Positions 1-35,207 of a stretch of DNA of 37,827 nucleotides are shown here, piece after piece; the stretch's first letter is position 1; every line of letters starts with the position of its first letter. The stretch is from a virus (lineage: Duplodnaviria; Heunggongvirae; Uroviricota; Caudoviricetes): the IMG/VR virus record IMGVR_UViG_2534681663_000017, positions 1 through 37,827 of that record; one strand, written 5' to 3'. Made by a program: the position numbers and the translations under genes. The notes beneath the pieces were generated by a model. The model worked only from the letters and a program-made list of their open reading frames with translations, ran no database searches and had not been told where the DNA came from.

Positions 1-468
1 TTAATTTAATCGGCTACGATAAAAGTCTCTTGTTATGTTGCGATCGATGACTACTTCACAACGTGCTGAAGGTCTGTAACCCTCACGAGCCTTAATCCAT
101 GGTTCTTCTTTATGAGTCATATCTTCAAGTTGTGCGCCAGAAAAAGCACCGTAGACTTCAAGAACGCCATCAATATGAGCTGCGGTTGCGGCTGGAATGG
201 ATGAAAGATCAAACCCAGGAGTGCGATCTGCAATCGTTATGTCCGAATACAGTGATTTTGTAGAAGAGAACCGGTTATAAATCGCACGGCTTACTGGGCC
301 ATGAATCCAAGCTTGAAACTCCTCATCCACTAACTTTTTATCGAAAAAAGCTAGATACCAAGCATCTGCGTAATAAGCTAATTTTTGCAGCTTCAAATTA
401 GACATAGTTTCACCTGAAGCTAAGATTTTTGTGATGATGTAATCACATAATTGGTTAATATTTATCAT
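1..468 (-). CDS. Panacea-domain (DUF4065, GepA/SocA-like) phage-associated protein, putative antitoxin-type module
   Basis: 155-aa ORF; N-terminal region KLQKLAYYADAWYLAFF...FQAWIHGPV matches the conserved Panacea-domain pattern from memory; ATG at 468 preceded by GAGGGA Shine-Dalgarno on the minus strand; AT-rich. Confidence 0.55.
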   Translation of the reverse strand: MININQLCDYIITKILASGETMSNLKLQKLAYYADAWYLAFFDKKLVDEEFQAWIHGPVSRAIYNRFSSTKSLYSDITIADRTPGFDLSSIPAATAAHIDGVLEVYGAFSGAQLEDMTHKEEPWIKAREGYRPSARCEVVIDRNITRDFYRSRLN

Positions 469-633
469 TATTTATCCCTCTAGGCTTGGTGTCTAAGCAG
501 CCAATCTTATTAAAGATATCGACCGTTAGAAATCTTTGAATACCAAGTTAACTTATAGTGGCATACATAGCTGAATAAATCGAGATTCAAACGTGCTAAA
601 ATGTGATGAATATGGATGAGCAGTGCTTTCATT

Positions 634-1653
634 TTACGTAGTTACCATAGTTGCTAATGGATTAAAACGTAGCGCTGTTTCTAGGTGGTCAGGAGCCAGA
701 TGAGCATAGCGCATGGTCATTTTTATGTCGTGATGCCCAAGGATTTTCTGCAGAGCCAGGATGTTTCCGCCGGACATCATAAAGTGTGCTGCGAACGTAT
801 GACGCAGAACGTGTGTTAGCTGACCGCGTGGAAGCACAATAGAAGTCTTATCCATTACAGATAAAAACTGGAAGTAGCAGTCAGTGAAGAAATTGAAACC
901 GTCTAGGGCAATGATTTCCTCATACAGCTCTTTGCTAATCGGAATGCTTCGGTTCTTTTTGCCTTTGGTCCTGACGAATGTGATCCGGTATTTCGTAACC
1001 TGAGAACGGGTTAGGTTCACAGCTTCGCGCCAGCGTGCTCCGGTGCTCAGACAGATTTTAACGACAAGAGCGAGCAGGGGACTTTGGCGGTTGCAGTCGT
1101 ACAATAGCTCGGGAATTTGTTCATGCGTCAGCCAGGCCATCTCCTTTTCTGCGATGGTGAATTTTCGCATGTTCTCCAGTGGGTTCGGATACGACCATTC
1201 GCCCAGGCGGGATAGTTCGCTAAAAACACTACTTAGATAGCTTTGCTCCAGGTTAATGGTGACCGGGCTTGCTCCTTTCTTCCATTTCTCGCTGAAGTAG
1301 ATCTCGCCTGTCAGGCGTTTATCTCGATAGTGGGCAAACATTTTAGAGGTGAGATCAGTTGCAAGGGGATTGCCCAGAGCGTCAACCATCAGCAGCAATT
1401 TGTCATAGACATGCTGCCCAGCAGTCAGTGATTTACCATGTAGTTTGAACCATAGCTCAACCACGTCTTTTAGTGTTCGACGATCCACTGATTCACCTAG
1501 CCAGGGCTTTGCTTCGGTTTCTTCCATCGTGTGACGCTCAAAAGCCAGTGCTTCGCCTTTGGTGGCGAATTGTTTACGCACACGACGCCCACTACGTCCG
1601 GCGGGGTAACATTCGCAAAGCCATTTTCCTGTGGTGAGTTTTCGTACAGCCAT
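634..1653 (-). CDS. int: Tyrosine integrase, P2-type
   Basis: ORF track gives 391 aa but P2-family integrases begin MAVRKL...; this motif starts at ATG 1653 (340 aa). C-terminal catalytic region with HxxR...Y (LRHTFAAHFMMSGGNILALQKILGHHDIKMTMRYAHL). Confidence 0.9.
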   Translation of the reverse strand: MAVRKLTTGKWLCECYPAGRSGRRVRKQFATKGEALAFERHTMEETEAKPWLGESVDRRTLKDVVELWFKLHGKSLTAGQHVYDKLLLMVDALGNPLATDLTSKMFAHYRDKRLTGEIYFSEKWKKGASPVTINLEQSYLSSVFSELSRLGEWSYPNPLENMRKFTIAEKEMAWLTHEQIPELLYDCNRQSPLLALVVKICLSTGARWREAVNLTRSQVTKYRITFVRTKGKKNRSIPISKELYEEIIALDGFNFFTDCYFQFLSVMDKTSIVLPRGQLTHVLRHTFAAHFMMSGGNILALQKILGHHDIKMTMRYAHLAPDHLETALRFNPLATMVTT

Positions 1654-1841
1654 AAAAAATGCCCTCCAATAGAGAGCATTTTTACTGTATGTATAACCAG
1701 TGTCAATATATGAAATCCTGCGACCATACATCTCACTGAAGCCATAATGAAGTAGGCTATTCTTTTTGCTATGTGAGCATGTAACTTTTGCGGTTAACCT
1801 GTGGCTCATTTTTATTTTAGGCGCAGATATAAAAGCAAAAG

Positions 1842-2033
1842 TTATCGTGAGTTTTTAGTACAGATTTTTTTGGATTTACTAATAGTTCCATCATTGCAAA
1901 CGAATTTGCCATCTGAGGTACAGTGAGAAACACCTCCCTTTTTCCCTGAGCAGGGATAATTTCTAGCATAGGTAGCTAGTGGGTTTAATAACAAAGAACA
2001 TGACAAAACCACAAAAAATACCTTACCAAGCAT
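1842..2033 (-). CDS. Small secreted cysteine-containing protein (signal peptide plus about 40-aa mature part), hypothetical
   Basis: 63-aa ORF with N-terminal hydrophobic signal-like segment [23 protein letters not shown] followed by a Cys/Lys/Gly-rich segment; AT-rich; sits between int and cI. Confidence 0.35.
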
Positions 2034-2048
2034 AATTTCCTCCCGGTA

Positions 2049-2618
2049 CTATTTAACATACTTGACTGTTAAACTTATAATTTTACCAATTATTTCAATG
2101 TCTTCTATCTTGCATTCGAAGGCTCTGTTTCCACCCTCGACGAAGATTCTTCCACCGGGTAAACGAGTAATGTCACGGATCGTTATTTCGCCATCAATAC
2201 TTATTACCCATTTACCATCACGTATATCATCAAATTCCTTATCACAAATAAATTCAGAATTATTATCTGTGATTACAAAAAGATTCTTGAATGCCGACGG
2301 TAGAAATTCTCTATCGAAAATATAAAAACCGTCTTCACACAAGGCCCCATCAGATAATACATATTTAGCAACTTCCATAGTATTTGTATTACCTGAAGTT
2401 TGCTTTGAACCATGCCCGGTTGTGAGCCAATTAAGCGAGGTGCCTGTTTCAAGGGCGCACTGGATTACCCATTCTGCTGGGAATGAGTCACGCATGTAGC
2501 GTGTGGCGAGTGTACTTTTAGAGATTCCTAAATGATCGCACAACGCCTGTCGAGTCTTGAATCCATATGCTTCTACCATGCGCTCTATAGCGCCTCGTCC
2601 GCCTTTCTCCAAATTCAT
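2049..2618 (-). CDS. cI: Immunity repressor, phage 186 CI-like
   Basis: N-terminal region ...ERMVEAYGF...CALETGTSLNWLTTGHG resembles 186 CI as recalled; likely start ATG 2618 (GGAG 5 nt upstream on minus strand) rather than the GTG at 2624 given by the ORF track; divergent from the lytic operon. Confidence 0.75.
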   Translation of the reverse strand: MNLEKGGRGAIERMVEAYGFKTRQALCDHLGISKSTLATRYMRDSFPAEWVIQCALETGTSLNWLTTGHGSKQTSGNTNTMEVAKYVLSDGALCEDGFYIFDREFLPSAFKNLFVITDNNSEFICDKEFDDIRDGKWVISIDGEITIRDITRLPGGRIFVEGGNRAFECKIEDIEIIGKIISLTVKYVK

Positions 2619-2643
2619 GGTCACTCCAAGTGAACTTTTATCT

Positions 2644-5652: not shown

Positions 5653-8063
5653 GTCATGCCGATATGAGCGACTCTAGCGGCTTTAACGAGGCCGCTGCAG
5701 CATTTTCATGGAACGGCCCGAAAAAGGCCATAAACCCTTATCTGGACCCGGCGGAAGTTGCGCCGGTTTCTGCGCTTTCAAACCTGATCACTCTGTATGC
5801 TGCCGATAACGAGCAGGAACAGCTGCGCCGCGAGGAATTGAGTGAACAGGTCTGGGAGCGTTATTTCTTTAATGAATCCCGTGATCCTGTCCAGCGCGAA
5901 ATGGAGCAGGATAAGCTCATTAGTCGGGCAAAGCTGGCGCATGAGCAGCAGCGTTTTAACCCGGACATGGTCATTCTGGCGGACGTCAGCGCCCAGCCCA
6001 CCCACATCAGCAAGCCGCTGATGCAACGTATCGAATACTTCAGCAGCCTGGGCAGGCCAAAGGCTTATTCCCGCTATTTGCGTGAGACGATTAAGCCATG
6101 TCTGGAGCGACTGGATTGTGTACGCGACAGTCAGCTATCTACTTCTTTCCGTTTTATGGCAAGCCATCAAGGGCTGGAGGGCCTGCTGATCCTGCCTGAA
6201 ATGAGTCAGGATCAGGTGAAACGCCTGTCCACCCTGGTAGCTGCGCATATGAGCATGTGTCTTGAGGCCGCTTGTGGTGATTTGTATACCAACGATGACG
6301 TAAAGCCAGAAGAAATCCGCAAGACATGGGAAAAGGTGGCAGCGGAAACCCTGCGTCTGGATGTTATCCCGCCTGCGTTTGAGAAACTTCGTCGGAAAAG
6401 AAACCGCCGCAAACCTGTGCCCTATGAACTCATACCGGGTTCGCTGGCACGTATGCTTTGCGCCGACTGGTGGTATCGAAAATTGTGGAAGATGCGTTGC
6501 GAATGGCGGGAAGAGCAGTTGCGTGCTGTCTGTCTGGTCAGCAAAAAAGCATCTCCCTATGTCAGCTATGAAGCCGTGATGCATAAACGTGAGCAGCGCC
6601 GCAAGTCGCTGGAGTTTTTCCGTTCTCATGAACTGGTGAACGAAGACGGAGACACGCTGGATATGGAAGATGTGGTAAACGCCAGCAGCAGCAACCCGGC
6701 ACATCGCCGCAATGAGATGATGGCCTGCGTTAAAGGTCTGGAGCTTATCGCGGAAATGCGCGGTGACTGCGCCGTTTTCTACACCATCACATGTCCGTCA
6801 CGTTTCCATTCCACGCTCAATAACGGCAGGCCCAACCCGACCTGGACAAATGCGACGGTAAGACAAAGCAGCGATTATCTGGTCGGCATGTTTGCTGCAT
6901 TTCGTAAGGCGATGCACAAAACCGGGTTGCGCTGGTATGGCGTACGGGTGGCTGAGCCGCACCATGACGGTACTGTGCACTGGCATCTCATGTGTTTCAT
7001 GCGCAAAAAAGACCGCCGCGCCATTACTGCATTGTTGCGTAAGTTTGCCATCCGTGAAGACCGCGAGGAGCTGGGCAATAACACGGGCCCACGCTTTAAG
7101 TCTGAGCTGATAAACCCACGCAAAGGAACGCCGACAAGCTACATCGCAAAATACATCAGTAAGAACATTGACGGGCGTGGTCTGGCTGGCGAGATCAGCA
7201 AGGAAACGGGTAAATCCCTGCGTGATAACGCCGAATACGTTAATGCCTGGGCGTCTCTGCATCGTGTTCAGCAGTTCCGCTTCTTTGGTATTCCGGGGCG
7301 CCAGGCTTACCGTGAACTGCGATTGCTGGCTGGTCAGGCGGCAAGACAACAGGGTGACAAAAAAGCAGGTGCGCCGGTACTGGATGATCCGCGTCTTGAT
7401 GCCATCCTGGCTGCTGCTGATGCTGGTTGTTTTGCCACCTACATCATGAAGCAGGGCGGCGTACTGGTTCCCCGCAAATATCACCTTATCAGAACAGCTT
7501 ATGAAATTAACGAAGAGCCGACTGCCTATGGCGATCACGGTATTCGTATTTATGGCATCTGGTCACCCATTTCAGAGGGCAAGATCTGCACTCATGCAGT
7601 GAAGTGGAAAATGGTTCGTAAGGCCGTTGACGTTCAGGAGGCGGTAGCCGACCAGGGCGCTTGCGCCCCTTGGACTCGTGGCAATAACTGTCCCCTTGCT
7701 GAAAATTTGTACCAACAAGGGAAAGACAAATCAGCTGATGGGGGCTCCAGAACGGACATTACCCGCATGGATGACAAGGAATTGCACGATTACCTGCACA
7801 GTATGAGCAAAAAAGATCGCCGGGAGCTGGCAGCAAGGTTGCGCTTGGTGAAACCGAAACGGCGTAAAGACTACAAACAGCGAATTACAGATCATCAGCA
7901 TCAGCAGCTCGTCTATGAACTGAAGTCCAGAGGATTTGATGGCAGCGAGAAAGAAGTCGATTTGCTCCTTCGCGGTGGCAGTATTCCGTCAGGAGCAGGC
8001 TTGCGTATCTTCTATCGGAACCAGCGTTTGCGGGAAGATGATAAGTGGCGGAACCTGTATTAA
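5649..8063 (+). CDS. A: Replication initiation endonuclease, P2 gpA family (rolling-circle initiator)
   Basis: 804-aa ORF; HUH-like metal motif [11 protein letters not shown] and paired-tyrosine region YIAKYISKN, as recalled for P2 A; start overlaps dam stop (ATGA). Confidence 0.9.
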
Positions 8064-8915: not shown

Positions 8916-9446
8916 TTAACCTTGTATAGTTATTTGAATATTTTCTTCATTGACACCAAAGTATAGGGCTAGCCCTGCTTTTGCCTCCTGAAGTGTTAAC
9001 GGCTTAACTACATTTTCTTCTTCTTCTTCGTACTCATCACCCGCTTGATCGACAATCGAATTAGTCGGGGTTAATTTTGGAAGAGCTTTAAATTCCAACT
9101 TGTCAGCCTCAATGCCAATGTCTTTGAGGTTGCGATAAGAAACGGGATTCCGATTGCCATCCCATTGTCCTGGGATGTCAATTTCAGCATAAGAATTGAT
9201 GTTTATGATCCAGCGTTTAGGGTTTTCTGGAGCCCTGCTTACTCCCGAGATTCGACCGATCATAAAAGCATGATGATGTTTTGCTTCTTGTGATCCCCAG
9301 TCCTTTCTCGAATTTTGTACACAAACTAAATATTCGTGCTTAGCTGCATGGCTGGCGTCAAGTCTCCATGCTTGGCTTCCCCCTGTGTTCAAAATCTCTG
9401 TTAAACCACGAGCAGTAAGTACAGTAATACAGTTGGTAGTAGCCAT
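8916..9446 (-). CDS. Hypothetical cargo protein at the old/tin-equivalent position (acidic EEEEE stretch), candidate defence or accessory gene
   Basis: 176-aa ORF on the opposite strand to the early operon, RBS GGAGTCAC before ATG 9446, AT-rich codon usage; no motif recognised. Confidence 0.55.
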   Translation of the reverse strand: MATTNCITVLTARGLTEILNTGGSQAWRLDASHAAKHEYLVCVQNSRKDWGSQEAKHHHAFMIGRISGVSRAPENPKRWIININSYAEIDIPGQWDGNRNPVSYRNLKDIGIEADKLEFKALPKLTPTNSIVDQAGDEYEEEEENVVKPLTLQEAKAGLALYFGVNEENIQITIQG

Positions 9447-10139: not shown

Positions 10140-10216
10140 GGTGTTAATTGTTAGTCAGCTAAACGGTGTTACATTTTATTTTCAACGAAATTAAGTTTTT
10201 GTCATGGAGAGGCTTT

Positions 10217-11038
10217 ATGAAGGTTAGTTTTGATGTTGTTATTAAAAGTGGTGCTTATGATGTTGATATGGATTACGCGCTTAAAACATTAGCTGGTACA
10301 TCGAATGTAGTTTGCCTTTTGGCAGAAGCGATACTTCGTGGAAGAATTATTGAACGGCGTACCCATGCAAATGATATCAGAGCAAAGCTTAAACACAGTT
10401 TTCCGGGTTCTTATGGTCAAAAATTTGACATCGAGATAAATGACTCGACACTGATTTCTCGTTTGAATTCTATGGGACGTAGTGTTTTCTCTGAAGTAAT
10501 GAGTTACTATATTTGTGAAGCGCTATATGTTGAGCATAATGGTTTGACAGATGCAGCACAGAAAATCATTGATAGTTTAGTTGCAATAGAGGATGAGCTT
10601 ACAAAGCGAATTCGTTCCCCACTAAAAGATATGCATAAAGTCACTACAATGAATGGTTATAATGTTGAGTTATCTTATCGAAAACCTGGATCACCAGAAA
10701 ACATTATAACGTTGACACCAGAAACTGAGATTAATATTTCAGATACTGAAATACTACAGGTTTCCCATGATATATCTGTAATCATAACTCGTTTTAATTC
10801 AATGACAGGAAATGGTCGACTTATACTTGAAGGGTATGAAGAACATGGCACTGTAGCATTTGGATTTTATGATAATTTAAGATATGTAACAGAAAACCAT
10901 AAAAGACAAATCACTCAAAACTTGCATCACAATAATGGCCTTCCATCAGATAGATGGCAATATATGAATTTAACTGTAAGTGATATGGTTCTTCCTAGTG
11001 GGGATGTTATTAAATATCTAATTCGTAATATACCTTGA
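10217..11038 (+). CDS. Hypothetical soluble protein, gene 1 of AT-rich two-gene cargo operon (candidate defence sensor/partner)
   Basis: ORF track starts at GTG 10166; ATG 10217 has GGAGAGG upstream (273 aa). No recognisable catalytic motif; strongly AT-biased codons. Confidence 0.6.
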   Translation: MKVSFDVVIKSGAYDVDMDYALKTLAGTSNVVCLLAEAILRGRIIERRTHANDIRAKLKHSFPGSYGQKFDIEINDSTLISRLNSMGRSVFSEVMSYYICEALYVEHNGLTDAAQKIIDSLVAIEDELTKRIRSPLKDMHKVTTMNGYNVELSYRKPGSPENIITLTPETEINISDTEILQVSHDISVIITRFNSMTGNGRLILEGYEEHGTVAFGFYDNLRYVTENHKRQITQNLHHNNGLPSDRWQYMNLTVSDMVLPSGDVIKYLIRNIP

Positions 11039-11048
11039 TAGAGTTATT

Positions 11049-11744
11049 ATGAAAATTCACTCTATTAAAATCTTTGCTGCATTAGTAATTATAATTACGT
11101 GGTTGAGTTATTTTGCAAAGTTTGGTGATTGGTTTAACTTCTCGAGTGATACGGCTGTTTGGGGGCAGTTTGGGGATTTTTTAGGAGGGGTGATTAATCC
11201 ACTGCTTACATTTATATCTGTTGTTTACTTGATTAACTCTGTAAATCTTCAGCGAGAGGCGAACGCTAGCCTGATTGCGCTTGAAGAGTTTAAGAAAACT
11301 GAGACCAAATTTTATAACATGCTTGAGTCACAACGAAGTGGCTTCGAAAGCTTTAAAATTGTAGATAGTGTGGATGGGAAACCTTTAGTTATCAAGGACG
11401 GTGACGCGGTTACATATATTGAGGATGTTGTTGTAGAAATGGTAATCCAAGGAAGTACAAAAGGAGAAATCTCAAATAAAATAGGTGGAATGGATAAAGC
11501 GGATAATATATTTAGTATAGTGAGGCGCTTTCATAATATTATTAAGTTGATTAAAAGGGAAATTCCGGAAAACTTAAGAAGTGAATATTATGATAGTTTA
11601 GTTAATATGACTGAGTATAAGCAAATATGTCTTATATTAATATCAATGGAGCTTTTTGATTGGCCTATTTTAAGTAGCATTGATGAAAGTGGTGTGTTTA
11701 ATATTGAGGCATTAATGGAATATAGAAAAGCATTTAGACCATAA
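11049..11744 (+). CDS. Two-TM membrane protein, gene 2 of cargo operon (candidate membrane effector)
   Basis: 231 aa; two N-terminal hydrophobic helices (IKIFAALVIIITWLSYFAKF and FGDFLGGVINPLLTFISVVYLI) then a charged soluble domain; starts 10 bp after gene 1. Confidence 0.65.
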   Translation: MKIHSIKIFAALVIIITWLSYFAKFGDWFNFSSDTAVWGQFGDFLGGVINPLLTFISVVYLINSVNLQREANASLIALEEFKKTETKFYNMLESQRSGFESFKIVDSVDGKPLVIKDGDAVTYIEDVVVEMVIQGSTKGEISNKIGGMDKADNIFSIVRRFHNIIKLIKREIPENLRSEYYDSLVNMTEYKQICLILISMELFDWPILSSIDESGVFNIEALMEYRKAFRP

Positions 11745-20533: not shown

Positions 20534-20605
20534 TATGTCTTGTTTTTTGTGGGTTTTTATAACATCATATTGGCTCTGTTATAAATAGTATGGAGAGTTT
20601 GATTG

Positions 20606-21811
20606 ATGAAAAAAAATAACGATATCAATAAACAAGTAAAATCAGAAACAGAAAATAATTCATCTGCAAATATGAATGGAAGTGGCTCGGATGAAATCCT
20701 TTCTAAGAGCACCTCTGGTACGGTGGTATGGGGAGATAACAGTTTTGGAAGTATTTCTAAATATATTAATGAGGTACTCGGTAAGAATTTATATTTAGAT
20801 ATAATTAAATCTCTTGATGCTAAGTTGAAAGCACCAGTTCAAGCTAATAGAACTACTATATTAAAGAACCTGAAGGGTAATTTCAAAGAGGAAAATCTTG
20901 TGCTTGTATTAGGCGCTGGAATTTCTTTGGATTATAAAATACCTACATGGGATGAATTATTAAGGAGGTTGCTTGCTAGAGCGTTACAAGATACTAATGA
21001 AAATCAGCAAGTTGTTGCGACATTATTTAATCAGGTGTTCGGGCCAAATGCTTTGATTGCGGCTAGATATTTAAAGTTACATTTTGAAAGTGCTAACACT
21101 CCTCTTGAGAAAGAAATTCAGAAAGTGTTATATCAATTTTATGATAGCACCGAGAGTCAAACGCTTAAGGCGATAAAGAAATTATGTATTTCTGCGGGGA
21201 AGGCTCCGGGGTTAGATTCTGTCATAACATATAATTATGACGACATACTAGAGCAAACATTACAAAACGCAGATGTTGGTATTAAATTTAAGGTTATATA
21301 TAAAACTGGGCAGCATGCAAAAAAAGATGAGTTGCCAATATATCATGTTCATGGATATCTTCCCTTAAATGGTAAGATTGATAGTGATGACAGCCTAGTT
21401 TTATCGGATGAAAGTTATCATCGGCAATATATGGATTTATATCACTGGAGTAATATGGTTCAGTTGAATAAATTCAAAGACAATAATTGTTTGTTTATAG
21501 GACATTCCTTTACTGATCCAAATTTAAGACGTCTGCTTGATGCTGCTAAAAAGTTAAGGGGTAATGATTCTAAACCTCATTACTTAATAAAATGTCGACA
21601 CTCAAAAGATGATGTTATAAATAAAATTCTAAAAGGTTCACGTCAAGATTTGAATGACGGGCTAGTCGACGATATAGACAATGTTGCCCGTTCTTTATTA
21701 GATACTGTACATAAATTTGAAGAAATTGATGCTAACTCTTTTGGTGTTAATGTTATATGGATTGATAATTTTACTGAAATAGGCCCCATAGTAACTGATT
21801 TAACTCAATAA
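20606..21811 (+). CDS. Standalone SIR2-like (sirtuin-fold, putative NAD+-consuming) protein, candidate anti-phage defence effector
   Basis: 401 aa from ATG 20606 (GGAGAG upstream); motifs LVLVLGAGISLDYKIPTWDELL, YNYDDILEQ and IYHVHGY match the SIR2-like domain pattern seen in defence-associated sirtuins; AT-rich island between S and V. Confidence 0.8.
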   Translation: MKKNNDINKQVKSETENNSSANMNGSGSDEILSKSTSGTVVWGDNSFGSISKYINEVLGKNLYLDIIKSLDAKLKAPVQANRTTILKNLKGNFKEENLVLVLGAGISLDYKIPTWDELLRRLLARALQDTNENQQVVATLFNQVFGPNALIAARYLKLHFESANTPLEKEIQKVLYQFYDSTESQTLKAIKKLCISAGKAPGLDSVITYNYDDILEQTLQNADVGIKFKVIYKTGQHAKKDELPIYHVHGYLPLNGKIDSDDSLVLSDESYHRQYMDLYHWSNMVQLNKFKDNNCLFIGHSFTDPNLRRLLDAAKKLRGNDSKPHYLIKCRHSKDDVINKILKGSRQDLNDGLVDDIDNVARSLLDTVHKFEEIDANSFGVNVIWIDNFTEIGPIVTDLTQ

Positions 21812-25705: not shown

Positions 25706-25889
25706 TCCAGTTACTTTGACTGAAGTAATCCCCGGTCTTCATGACGTGACCGGGGCTATTGAATTACCGGAGGACAACTGGTTTTTTACTATGACAGAAA
25801 TTCCTCAGGGCATGGAGCTAACAATTAATGAGAAAGGCGAACCAATACTGATTGAGGTTAATCAGTCTCAGGGAATACAGGCCAAATAA
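25692..25889 (+). CDS. Short ORF downstream of H in the current orientation (possible small or truncated tail-fibre chaperone)
   Basis: GTG 25692 with GGAGGG 6 nt upstream; only 65 aa, far shorter than typical tail-fibre assembly proteins; overlaps the convergent minus-strand gene by 32 nt. Confidence 0.3.
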   Translation: MRLFNPVTLTEVIPGLHDVTGAIELPEDNWFFTMTEIPQGMELTINEKGEPILIEVNQSQGIQAK

Positions 25890-26463
25890 TATCAGGCGCG
25901 GTGCTGGTATCTATTGCCGTCACCGCGTCAATGTAATCCAGCACAGCGTTAAGGCGGGTTGTTTCTGCCTGCGTCAGTTTACGTCCGGCCTGCAATTTCA
26001 GCTGAATCAGACTGATGGAAGCCATAGCAGCATCAATCAGAGACTGGCGCTGTACTTCTGCTGCATCTACTGCGGCGCTATGCTGTGCCTCGGTATCTGT
26101 TACCCATTTCTCACCATCCCATTTATCGTATGGCGTTAATGGGGCAAAAGTGGTCGTATTTTCAGGGTAATCCCCCGGCACAGTAATTTCTTTTGATTCC
26201 CCCGTTTCGATGCCATAGACAATTTCACCGCGATGGTCTGACACATATTCCCATGAGTTAAAATCTGCAGAACGGCAGATTGCATAACCAGCCTTATGTG
26301 TGCCGGGCGCATCGGTACAGGAATTGGCAGGAATACCCACCCCCACAGGCAGATACTCAACCGATGAGGATATGTATTCGCGGGTGTCGCCCCGGTAGTT
26401 GTACACAGTGATTTCTCCTGCCACGGTGGCAATAAACGCACTGTTTAATTTTGCTTTCGCCAT
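25858..26463 (-). CDS. Tail fibre assembly protein (Tfa/U'-like) in the inverted-orientation cassette
   Basis: 201 aa; C-terminal region ...RLNAVLDYIDAVTAIDTSTAPDIIWPVFPE resembles the conserved Tfa C-terminus; start overlaps the stop of the upstream alternative fibre segment (TAATG). Confidence 0.7.
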   Translation of the reverse strand: MAKAKLNSAFIATVAGEITVYNYRGDTREYISSSVEYLPVGVGIPANSCTDAPGTHKAGYAICRSADFNSWEYVSDHRGEIVYGIETGESKEITVPGDYPENTTTFAPLTPYDKWDGEKWVTDTEAQHSAAVDAAEVQRQSLIDAAMASISLIQLKLQAGRKLTQAETTRLNAVLDYIDAVTAIDTSTAPDIIWPVFPETD

Positions 26464-27061
26464 TATGCAGCCCTCACGATGTAGTTAAATGCAATGTTGC
26501 GCGGACGGGTTTCAGATGCGTACACGGACGGATGAGTAACACCGTCTGAGGTCGATGCCCTGTAAGTCCTGAATGGTGGTAATCCGGTCGCTATTGCGTT
26601 GTTATTACCTGTTGGTGAAAGGTCCTTGCGATAAAGGATTACCTTGTCTGCCCTACTGGTTGCGTCCCATGATGTTCCTGACGACGATGGACTCAGGGCC
26701 GCACTGGGTATTTCTGGTACATCGTTGAAAACCGCATAGATATCGCTTTCCATCTGGTCTGACGGATTACCCACTCCGGTTGGCAGAGCGTGCGCATGGT
26801 CCTGGAAAGCAAAACTCTGACAACTGAGAAGTATGCGCCCCTCATCAATCCCTCGCCCGTCATCCCAGCCACGAATAAACTCACCACGTAAATCTGGCAA
26901 TTTATTTGTCGGGTAAGCCTTTGCCAGTTCCGGGTATTCTTCAGCAGAAAAAGCCGCACCATTGCATTTCAGCCAGCCTGTTGGCGGAGTGGCTGAAGGC
27001 CACGGAACAGGGACACCAACAGGTAATGCAGAGCCTTCTCCCAAACCAACGTTTATGAAAA
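26463..27061 (-). CDS. Alternative tail-fibre C-terminal segment (Sv'-like, tail-collar-type motif); no independent start, expressed only after inversion
   Basis: Minus-strand reading frame carries GLGE at the crossover then ...LPVGVPVPWPSATPPTGWLKCNGAAFSAEEYPELAKAY...LPDLRGEFIRGWDDGRG, a phage tail-collar-like pattern; frame is open through the right gix-like site. Confidence 0.6.
27036..27061. promoter_or_regulatory. Right recombination site (gix/hix-like) of the invertible segment
   Basis: TTCTCCCAAACC AA CGTTTATGAAAA, inverted relative to the left site, 55 bp upstream of the invertase start. Confidence 0.65.
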
Positions 27062-27116
27062 TGCAGAGATAATGGCTAACTGGCATCATCCCCGGTTTTT
27101 ATTCAGGGGGATGCTC

Positions 27117-27683
27117 ATGCTTATTGGCTATGTACGCGTGTCAACAAATGACCAGAACACCGATTTGCAACGTAATGCACTGAACTGCGCGGGATGTGAG
27201 CGGATTTTTGAGGATAAAATCAGTGGCACTAAGTCCGACAGACCAGGGTTGAAAAAACTGCTCAGGACACTATCGGCAGGAGACACGCTGGTTGTCTGGA
27301 AGCTGGACAGGTTGGGGCGCAGTATGCGGCATCTTGTTACGCTGATAGAAGAGTTGCGTCAGCGAGGCGTGAATTTCCGAAGCCTGACTGACAGTATTGA
27401 TACCAGCACCCCAATGGGCCGTTTCTTTTTTCATGTCATGGGTGCCCTGGCTGAAATGGAACGCGAACTGATAGTTGAACGTACCAGGGCAGGGCTGGCT
27501 GCAGCTCGTGCCAAAGGCAGAGTAGGTGGACGCCGTCCTAAGTTGACCACCGAACAGTGGGCACAGATTGGGCGTTTACTCGAGGCCGGAGAATCAAGAC
27601 AGCGTATTGCACTGATTTTTGATGTGGGCGTTTCTACCATTTATAGAAAATTTCCGGCGAATGAGAACAATGAATCGCCCTGA
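27117..27683 (+). CDS. Serine DNA invertase (Gin/Hin/Pin/Cin family)
   Basis: Starts MLIGYVRVSTNDQNTDLQRNAL... (ATG 27117, GGGGGA upstream); near-identical by eye to Mu Gin as recalled, including catalytic Ser in YVRVST and a C-terminal HTH. Confidence 0.9.
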   Translation: MLIGYVRVSTNDQNTDLQRNALNCAGCERIFEDKISGTKSDRPGLKKLLRTLSAGDTLVVWKLDRLGRSMRHLVTLIEELRQRGVNFRSLTDSIDTSTPMGRFFFHVMGALAEMERELIVERTRAGLAAARAKGRVGGRRPKLTTEQWAQIGRLLEAGESRQRIALIFDVGVSTIYRKFPANENNESP

Positions 27684-34972: not shown

Positions 34973-35207
34973 CGCTGCCGCCATTTTGTCGCCATCGTTA
35001 AAAAACAGTGCTTCTAACATCATGATCTTAAACACCATAAATTTCAGGCAACAAAAAACCCATCAACCTTGAACCGAAATGGCGGGGGTGATGGGCTCCA
35101 CAAAATGGGGACATCAAAGAAAAGCAGTGGCACTAATTAAGACTGATGCCCTGCGGAAAAGTTCTGCGGTTGTGCAAAAAAATTTCATTTTCAGGGCAAC
35201 TTCAGTT

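Follow-up and report, generated by a model that had tools for sequence, protein, structure and literature searches.

The window analysed here is the whole stretch of 37,827 nucleotides of the IMG/VR virus record IMGVR_UViG_2534681663_000017, and it holds a 186/P2-like prophage inserted between rcdA and ybjL. At its left edge lie, all on the minus strand, a Panacea-domain gene (panA), a non-coding leader and the integrase gene int, which is upstream of panA and co-directional with it. After int, the left side of the prophage continues with a YdcA-family gene (1842-2033, minus strand) and the CI repressor gene (2049-2624, minus strand), followed by plus-strand apl-like and CII genes and then by Dam methylase, replication gene A and the late genes; at the right end of the window, ogr (about 34.7-35.0 kb) is followed by the host genes ybjL, ybjM and grxA. 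The main features are given below in window coordinates, and L001 denotes the locus of strain BE2-5, in which window position 1 corresponds to position 8001, with one mismatch in 1900 bases.

-5 to -760 in window-equivalent numbering (L001 7995-7240), co-directional with panA: partner gene, 251 aa, WP_001710104.1
1 to 3, minus strand: panA stop codon and operon junction; the partner begins 5 nt farther left, outside the window
1 to 468, minus strand: panA, 155 aa, a stand-alone Panacea domain, putative antitoxin or sensor
469 to 633, minus strand: leader of the cassette, non-coding, from the int stop to the panA start
634 to 650, minus strand: right border of the cargo insertion, within the int 3′ end; the codons that close int (MVTT and the stop) are cargo-derived
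634 to 1653, minus strand: int, P2/186-type tyrosine integrase (Pfam Int_N E 2.7e-32, Phage_integrase E 2.1e-21; 339 aa in the RefSeq CDS)
34973 to 34995, plus strand: 23-nt repeat CGCTGCCGCCATTTTGTCGCCAT, with one mismatch relative to an int remnant at L001 7218-7240
35050 to 35063, plus strand: attR core AACAAAAAACCCAT, identical to the attL core and to K-12 attB

The panA gene runs from an ATG at 468-466, preceded by the Shine-Dalgarno sequence GAGGG at 480-476, to a TAA at 3-1, as judged from the open reading frame and inspection of the sequence. An earlier note had recognised a Panacea domain in this 155-aa frame and had described its upstream side as intergenic DNA followed by int; both statements were borne out. 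In a profile-HMM search, PanA matched the Pfam family PF13274 (SocA_Panacea) with E 2.1e-19 and 70.9 bits, the gathering score being 25.7, with residues 27-124 aligned to profile positions 1-112 of 113; PanA also matched PHROG 1281 (E 2.4e-37), and the identical RefSeq protein WP_001710106.1 is named "Panacea domain-containing protein". On the upstream side, no gene lies within 469-633, and 634 is the last position of int; a 40-aa open reading frame at 510-632 was rejected as a gene, as it found no support in the profile search. The NCBIfam SocA equivalog NF047745 covered PanA residues 7-151 with 63.3 bits, far under its cut-off of 190, so PanA is a Panacea protein but not SocA proper. The SocAB system of Caulobacter, in which SocA is the ClpXP adaptor antitoxin for SocB, has the Panacea domain in common with PanA; the partner described here is unrelated to SocB, and the pair is therefore not a SocAB system.

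Since the window begins exactly at the panA stop codon, the downstream side of the gene is missing from it. The same note had expected any co-transcribed partner to lie left of position 1, had held that the left boundary of the prophage is probably not at the end of int, and had allowed that the neighbour might instead be an unrelated host gene beyond an att repeat. After extension to the left, a co-directional 251-aa gene was found 5 nt past the panA stop, annotated as "hypothetical protein", and the att core lies past this gene and not between it and panA; the prophage boundary was likewise displaced from the int end as proposed, with the attL core about 0.9 kb beyond window position 1. The leftward order in BE2-5 is panA, 5 nt, the 251-aa gene, 115 bp of non-coding DNA and rcdA. 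Window positions 1-1900 are present in 24 of 5426 complete E. coli genomes at 99.5% identity or more; in these 24 genomes, the stretch from the attL arm to int is at least 99.1% identical, the L001 version being 100% identical in 19 of them, and in every one (24 of 24) a co-directional "hypothetical protein" gene adjoins panA in constant gene order. The 5-nt spacing lies well inside the limit of 100 nt that Kurata et al. 2022 set for PanAT pairs in silico. The gene pair halved by the window is thus complete, and the true left end of the prophage is fixed.

The 14-bp att core AACAAAAAACCCAT at L001 7112-7125 is attL; it lies about 115 bp beyond the partner stop, at a distance of about 875-888 bp from window position 1 on its left side. 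The attB of K-12 is uninterrupted (...GATAACAAAAAACCCAT|CAACCTTGAACC...), and homology to K-12 ends at the 14-bp core; the left junction of the lysogens reads ...AACAAAAAACCCAT|TTATGTAAACGGG (L001 7112-7125), and the right junction reads ...GGCAACAAAAAACCCAT|CAACCTTG (window 35050-35063). The P′ arm, from the core to the cargo junction just before the partner stop, measures about 107 bp (116 bp shared by alignment) and is common to sister prophages that are devoid of cargo, in which int follows directly (L064, strain 50EVAW). Beside attL it retains 41 bp left over from the int 3′ end, and a 23-nt stretch of this remnant, CGCTGCCGCCACTTTGTCGCCAT, recurs at window 34973-34995 with one mismatch. 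This repeat is likely to be an arm-type site of Int, a role in Int binding that we take to follow the paradigm of P2 attP. The P′ arm also contains two copies of AAAACAATAAGTT, 19 bp apart from start to start. Because the attL core lies left of both cassette genes, panA and its partner are inside the prophage and are phage cargo. The alternative that panA belongs to the host or to another island and lies beside int by coincidence found no supporting point; it is contradicted by the uninterrupted K-12 attB, by the position of the 14-bp core, by the P′ arm common to cargo-less prophages and by the restriction of the cassette in E. coli to this one context, and it was rejected as having next to no probability.

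A terminator-like hairpin on the minus strand extends across the attL core (L001 7140-7119) and would stop leftward transcripts. The phage integrates into a terminator-looking hairpin between rcdA and ybjL, and integration rebuilds the hairpin and its T-run over the attL core on the minus strand (cf. window 35050-35100).

The cassette occupies a variable slot bounded by the att core and int. Alignments of other int homologues with the window start only at 646-650, and the Int proteins compared (the window and loci L002, L064, L066, L068 and L069) have ...RFNPLAT in common and then a cargo-specific tail, each tail being followed by the stop codon: LPSGDKVAAAVGITP where there is no cargo, MVTT with PanAT, MNNA with a DUF4917 gene, LEV in BL21(DE3), and also LDVTKSDS. 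As the Int tails vary with the cargo, it follows that the cargo is swapped at two fixed junctions, one of them within the last codons of int. The content of the slot, from the attL arm to int, was sampled over 1136 genomes with this prophage type, and in most of the sampled prophages it is empty. Alternative cargos include a DUF4917 protein that matches PADLOC PDC-S21 (E 9e-122) and has a weak SIR2-like signal, a DUF2971 protein that matches PADLOC PDC-S31 (E 4e-23), a 110-aa protein in BL21(DE3) and a 240-aa protein. Among the 5426 complete E. coli genomes, the PanAT cassette is confined to this prophage context; the G+C content of the cassette is 39-44% versus 48-50% for int. Another enterobacterium has a pair of 82% identity in this slot, at the syntenic site of its chromosome. 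A pair of 57% identity is found in Yersinia enterocolitica (L071/L072 4533-5747), flanked directly by ybjL on one side and by P2/HP1-like tail-fibre genes on the other; it adjoins an apparently partial P2/HP1-like prophage, int is absent from its surroundings, and the host neighbourhood used is that of the E. coli pair, though in a different genus.

The interval from int to ydcA/cI is a second variable slot, since other lysogens carry a KAP-family NTPase there (L067 1521-2852, PADLOC PDC-S20, E 2.5e-171); in the window it holds the 63-aa YdcA-family protein (1842-2033, minus strand; NCBIfam PRK10040.1-2, E 1e-33). It has been reported that the int-att and int-primase regions of P2-like prophages are minor defence hotspots, with 3% and 8% of systems, respectively (PMC13586616, 2026); neither Panacea nor DUF4065 is mentioned in the main text of that work or of Rousset et al. 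2022 (PMC9122126). As in such accessory and defence hotspots, PanAT occupies the int-att region, and other cargo, including PADLOC candidates, is found there in sister prophages; unlike those candidates, the PanAT pair is itself unlisted as a defence system, as neither PanA nor the partner matched PADLOC-DB v2 at E ≤ 10. For the int-att slot of this E. coli P2/186-like lineage, the junctions show cargo exchange at two precise points.

Homologues of the partner form more than 180 clusters at 90% identity and 739 representatives at 50% identity (E ≤ 1e-3), 265 of which have E ≤ 1e-30; the best 150 of the 739 representatives are mostly about 240-270 aa long, some being shorter, and show a single matched stretch with no added domains. 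In a survey of one genome per species, 59 partner loci were obtained from Proteobacteria, Bacteroidota, Planctomycetota, Verrucomicrobiota, Cyanobacteria, Desulfobacterota and a few archaeal MAGs. A Panacea gene is directly upstream on the same strand in 56 of the 59, and the three exceptions are degraded partner copies (truncated, split or frameshifted). The panA homologues adjoining the partner at other loci match E. coli PanA at E 1e-30 to 1e-68, and the estimated distance from panA stop to partner start at 55 other loci is -38 to +34 nt, most commonly -4 or -1. The pairwise divergences of PanA and partner are correlated (r 0.56, reached by none of 2000 permutations), which may point indirectly to a complex of the two, with a mean identity of 50% for PanA versus 39% for the partner. 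One hundred immediate neighbours belong to 95 different Pfam families, only transposases and integrases being recurrent; a conserved third component was therefore rejected, and no conserved operon of over three genes, which the in silico definition of a PanAT pair by Kurata et al. 2022 precludes, was seen among them. Transposases and integrases are the commonest neighbours, and the pair is a self-contained, mobile two-gene unit. A tblastn search of the partner against 50,697 phage records gave no match, and a plasmid search with the partner gave only a weak Vibrio match. In Thorsellia kenyensis (L049 3265-5026), Panacea genes lie both upstream and downstream of the partner, perhaps as a tandem or nested module.

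Sequence searches place the partner in no established family. It matched nothing in Pfam, PADLOC or PHROGs; a Pfam search with 54 members of the partner family at E ≤ 10 gave no family, including no membership of RelE, ParE, HigB or YoeB; a faint match to NCBIfam MAG6450_fam (E 0.03) was discounted; the full-length profile found only insignificant TAZ zinc-finger-like matches among PDB sequences; and a Foldseek search of the PDB was not significant, its best match being HigB (E 0.57). In the AlphaFold model (mean pLDDT 82), about residues 28-145 form one strand and then two helices, which a conserved insertion separates from a sheet of three strands; towards the C-terminus come two helices (168-197) and a final helix-loop-helix (215-248). 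From this predicted topology, we read domain 1 (about 28-150) as a RelE/HigB/ParE fold. The partner differs from the ribosome-dependent mRNA endonucleases RelE, HigB, YoeB and YafQ and from the gyrase poison ParE in having no sequence-profile membership and from RelE/ParE toxins in a conserved insertion of about 30 residues, WRYHxIxWxQKNIPxxR, between helix 2 and the sheet; moreover, the antitoxin in RelE/ParE systems is of the RelB, HigA or ParD type, whereas the putative neutraliser here is a Panacea protein. Invariant residues of the partner include H84, W88, N110, Q118, G126, G130, D144, H147, N148, Q150 and P151, among which H84, D144, H147, N148 and Q150 are catalytic candidates on the basis of conservation.

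The linker that follows the putative RelE-like domain contains the pattern CX4C...CX4C in most members (C162 in 46 of 54, position 167 in 44 of 54, C185 in 48 of 54 and C190 in 51 of 54), and this Cys4 arrangement presumably forms a zinc site; in the E. coli partner, position 167 is Thr, with extra Cys nearby. The modelled tail (about 205-248) suggests a ParD-like ribbon-helix-helix (RHH). A profile search with the C-terminal tail placed Caulobacter ParD1 (3kxe) at rank 2 with a marginal E of 0.032, and the alignment to ParD1 spans helix A-G-x-x-S-helix B. Unlike in ParD/CopG proteins, where the RHH is N-terminal in the antitoxin, this element would be C-terminal in the presumed toxin, and the tail has no Pfam RHH match. 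The resulting domain model (RelE fold, Cys4 linker and RHH) is testable and applies to a widespread, unannotated family of 739 representative clusters.

It has been reported by Kurata et al. 2022 that Panacea proteins and their partners form the PanA/PanT class, with 1268 predicted pairs, 88 toxin clusters and nine validated pairs (PMC8832971). In the part of their Dataset S1 consulted here, Marinobacter shengliensis SL013A34A2 is entered as PanA with a PanT of cluster T1, antitoxin first, with a gap of 4 (PMC8832971); this is locus L008 of the present survey, for which the gap measured here is also 4 nt, so the partner family has already been catalogued through its Marinobacter member. The neighbouring rows, V. 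alginolyticus with a gap of 4 and V. palustris, likewise belong to T1 (PMC8832971) and are not matched to loci of the present survey, and in the same part of the dataset WP_001710104 and WP_001710106 are absent; T1 is apparently the first-listed and largest PanT cluster there. The class itself, Panacea as an antitoxin domain, the entry of the partner family and the int-att hotspot were thus already known. As in PanAT pairs, a stand-alone Panacea gene comes first and is tightly coupled to a second gene, and the two-gene unit recurs in different phyla, is prophage-borne and lacks a conserved third gene. The profile of the partner family aligned to that of the short T1 PanTs only weakly (hhalign E 8.4e-4, probability 24%), this being its sole link by sequence, and a single-sequence hhalign of the partner against the PanT of phage Emek was insignificant. 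The partner exceeds the short T1 PanTs by about 100 residues, adding the Cys-rich linker and the RHH-like tail to what may be the same fold, and we read it as a long form of T1; no description of this long-form effector architecture was found in the PanAT papers (PMC8832971, PMC10440598).

The tested T1 members are labelled "mRNase" in SI Table S1 (PMC8832971). The T1 PanTs of E. coli MOD1 and Salmonella phage Emek were not toxic, and that of C. cadaveris was toxic but was not neutralised by its own PanA, so none of the three T1 pairs found tested behaved as a classical toxin-antitoxin pair (PMC8832971). For this reason, "toxin" is used of the partner as a presumption, and a non-TA pair deserves to be weighed, in which the partner would be a non-toxic RHH regulator on a degenerate RelE-like scaffold and PanA its co-factor or modulator, with prophage regulation, anti-defence or another accessory role as possible tasks. 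Two related T1 PanTs that are non-toxic in E. coli and the failure of all three tested T1 pairs to be validated (PMC8832971) agree with such a regulator, as do the probable DNA-binding domain of the partner, its lack of a sequence-profile match to any toxin family and the higher conservation of PanA. Against it stand the invariant polar residues H84, N110, Q118, D144, H147, N148 and Q150 in or near the RelE-like strands, which one would expect of an active site and not of a scaffold; in addition, panA and its partner show the obligate, translationally coupled pairing of toxin-antitoxin operons, the slot otherwise carries defence candidates, and the Panacea partners validated to date are toxins (PMC8832971). 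A regulator is held to be unlikely, and panA and its partner are probably a PanAT-type toxin-antitoxin or abortive-infection cassette carried as cargo by a 186/P2-like prophage. Besides the T1 assays, several results count against this reading: the failure of profile searches to place the partner in a toxin family, the non-significant Foldseek search, the marginal RHH match, the weak link to the short T1 PanTs, the lack of a match in 50,697 phage records and the absence of the pair from PADLOC. The analysis shows that PanA has a Panacea domain, that the gene order is constant, that the pairing is obligate across phyla, that the pair lies inside the prophage in a variable slot and that the partner is similar to RelE-type proteins in fold. 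That the partner is toxic, is an RNase and binds DNA, that PanA neutralises it and that the pair serves in defence is what we infer.

If the pair is such a PanAT cassette, transcription of panA and its partner would run leftwards to the hairpin rebuilt on the attL core and end there; it would begin at a weak promoter belonging to the cassette or arrive as read-through of cI and int. The promoter scan found no convincing sigma-70 promoter for the cassette, which counts against the PanAT interpretation, and the sole minus-strand promoter match overlaps the Shine-Dalgarno sequence and start codon of panA. Ernits et al. 2023 found that stand-alone Panacea domains neutralise toxins directly and argued that Panacea is not a transcriptional regulator and is probably a sensor (PMC10440598), a view that fits an effector carrying its own DNA-binding domain. 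PanA may accordingly be envisaged as binding the effector and keeping it inactive, by direct neutralisation as in other stand-alone Panacea antitoxins. Autoregulatory DNA binding would then come from the RHH tail of the effector and not from the antitoxin; a possible operator is the 9-nt inverted repeat AAAGATATC/GAAATCTTT at 512-520 and 529-537 in the panA leader, so that 512-537 is a candidate site. Loss of PanA, or its triggering by an infecting phage for instance, would allow the RelE-like domain to cut mRNA and halt translation, with abortive infection or prophage addiction as the outcome. One form of this scheme is an inverted division of labour, in which the RelE-fold effector with its zinc-stabilised linker and RHH serves as both toxin and operon repressor, and PanA is neutraliser and phage sensor in abortive infection; it is put forward tentatively, as a possibility that we think will more probably fail than hold. 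Were it true, it would supply a function for a part of T1, which has no validated pair among the three found tested, and PanAT would join the defence repertoire of the P2 int-att hotspot. If the pair proves toxic or protective, it would offer a tractable E. coli example for what Panacea senses.

Addiction is the classical function of toxin-antitoxin pairs, and the pair could be a genuine one with this role, stabilising the prophage or its int-att end against loss or excision, and not acting on other phages. The cassette sits at the extreme end of the prophage beside attL, it is kept in BE2-5 although that prophage lost most of its genes, and the Yersinia pair, which has no int in its surroundings, adjoins an apparently partial P2/HP1-like prophage, all of which is consistent with addiction. 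The other cargos of the slot, on the other hand, match phage-defence candidate models, P2 is reported to have a defence hotspot in its int-att region (PMC13586616), and Ernits et al. prefer to see Panacea as a sensor (PMC10440598), so that addiction as the sole role seems distinctly improbable. It is compatible with the same molecular mechanism, and addiction and defence could both hold. In the BE2-5 prophage, all genes from cII to the tape-measure gene are gone (noted at L001 10998-12632), yet int, PanAT and both att sites are kept.

Other cargo is present in the same prophage. A 402-aa SIR2-like protein is encoded among the late genes at 20603-21811 (plus strand), with matches to Pfam SIR2_2 (E 1.4e-21) and to the LmuA-type (E 8e-22) and ThsA-type (E 1e-19) models of PADLOC, which makes it a second candidate for defence cargo. 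Three open reading frames of 176 aa (8916-9446, minus strand), 290 aa (10166-11038, plus strand) and 231 aa (11049-11744, plus strand) occupy the interval from replication gene A to the portal gene, the classical position of the P2 old/tin hotspot; Pfam and PADLOC gave no match for any of them. In addition, the region 25858-27683 contains a Hin/Cin-type serine invertase gene (27072-27683; Resolvase, E 3e-53) that adjoins opposite-strand tail-collar and tail-fibre-assembly genes, and this arrangement looks like an invertible host-range segment.
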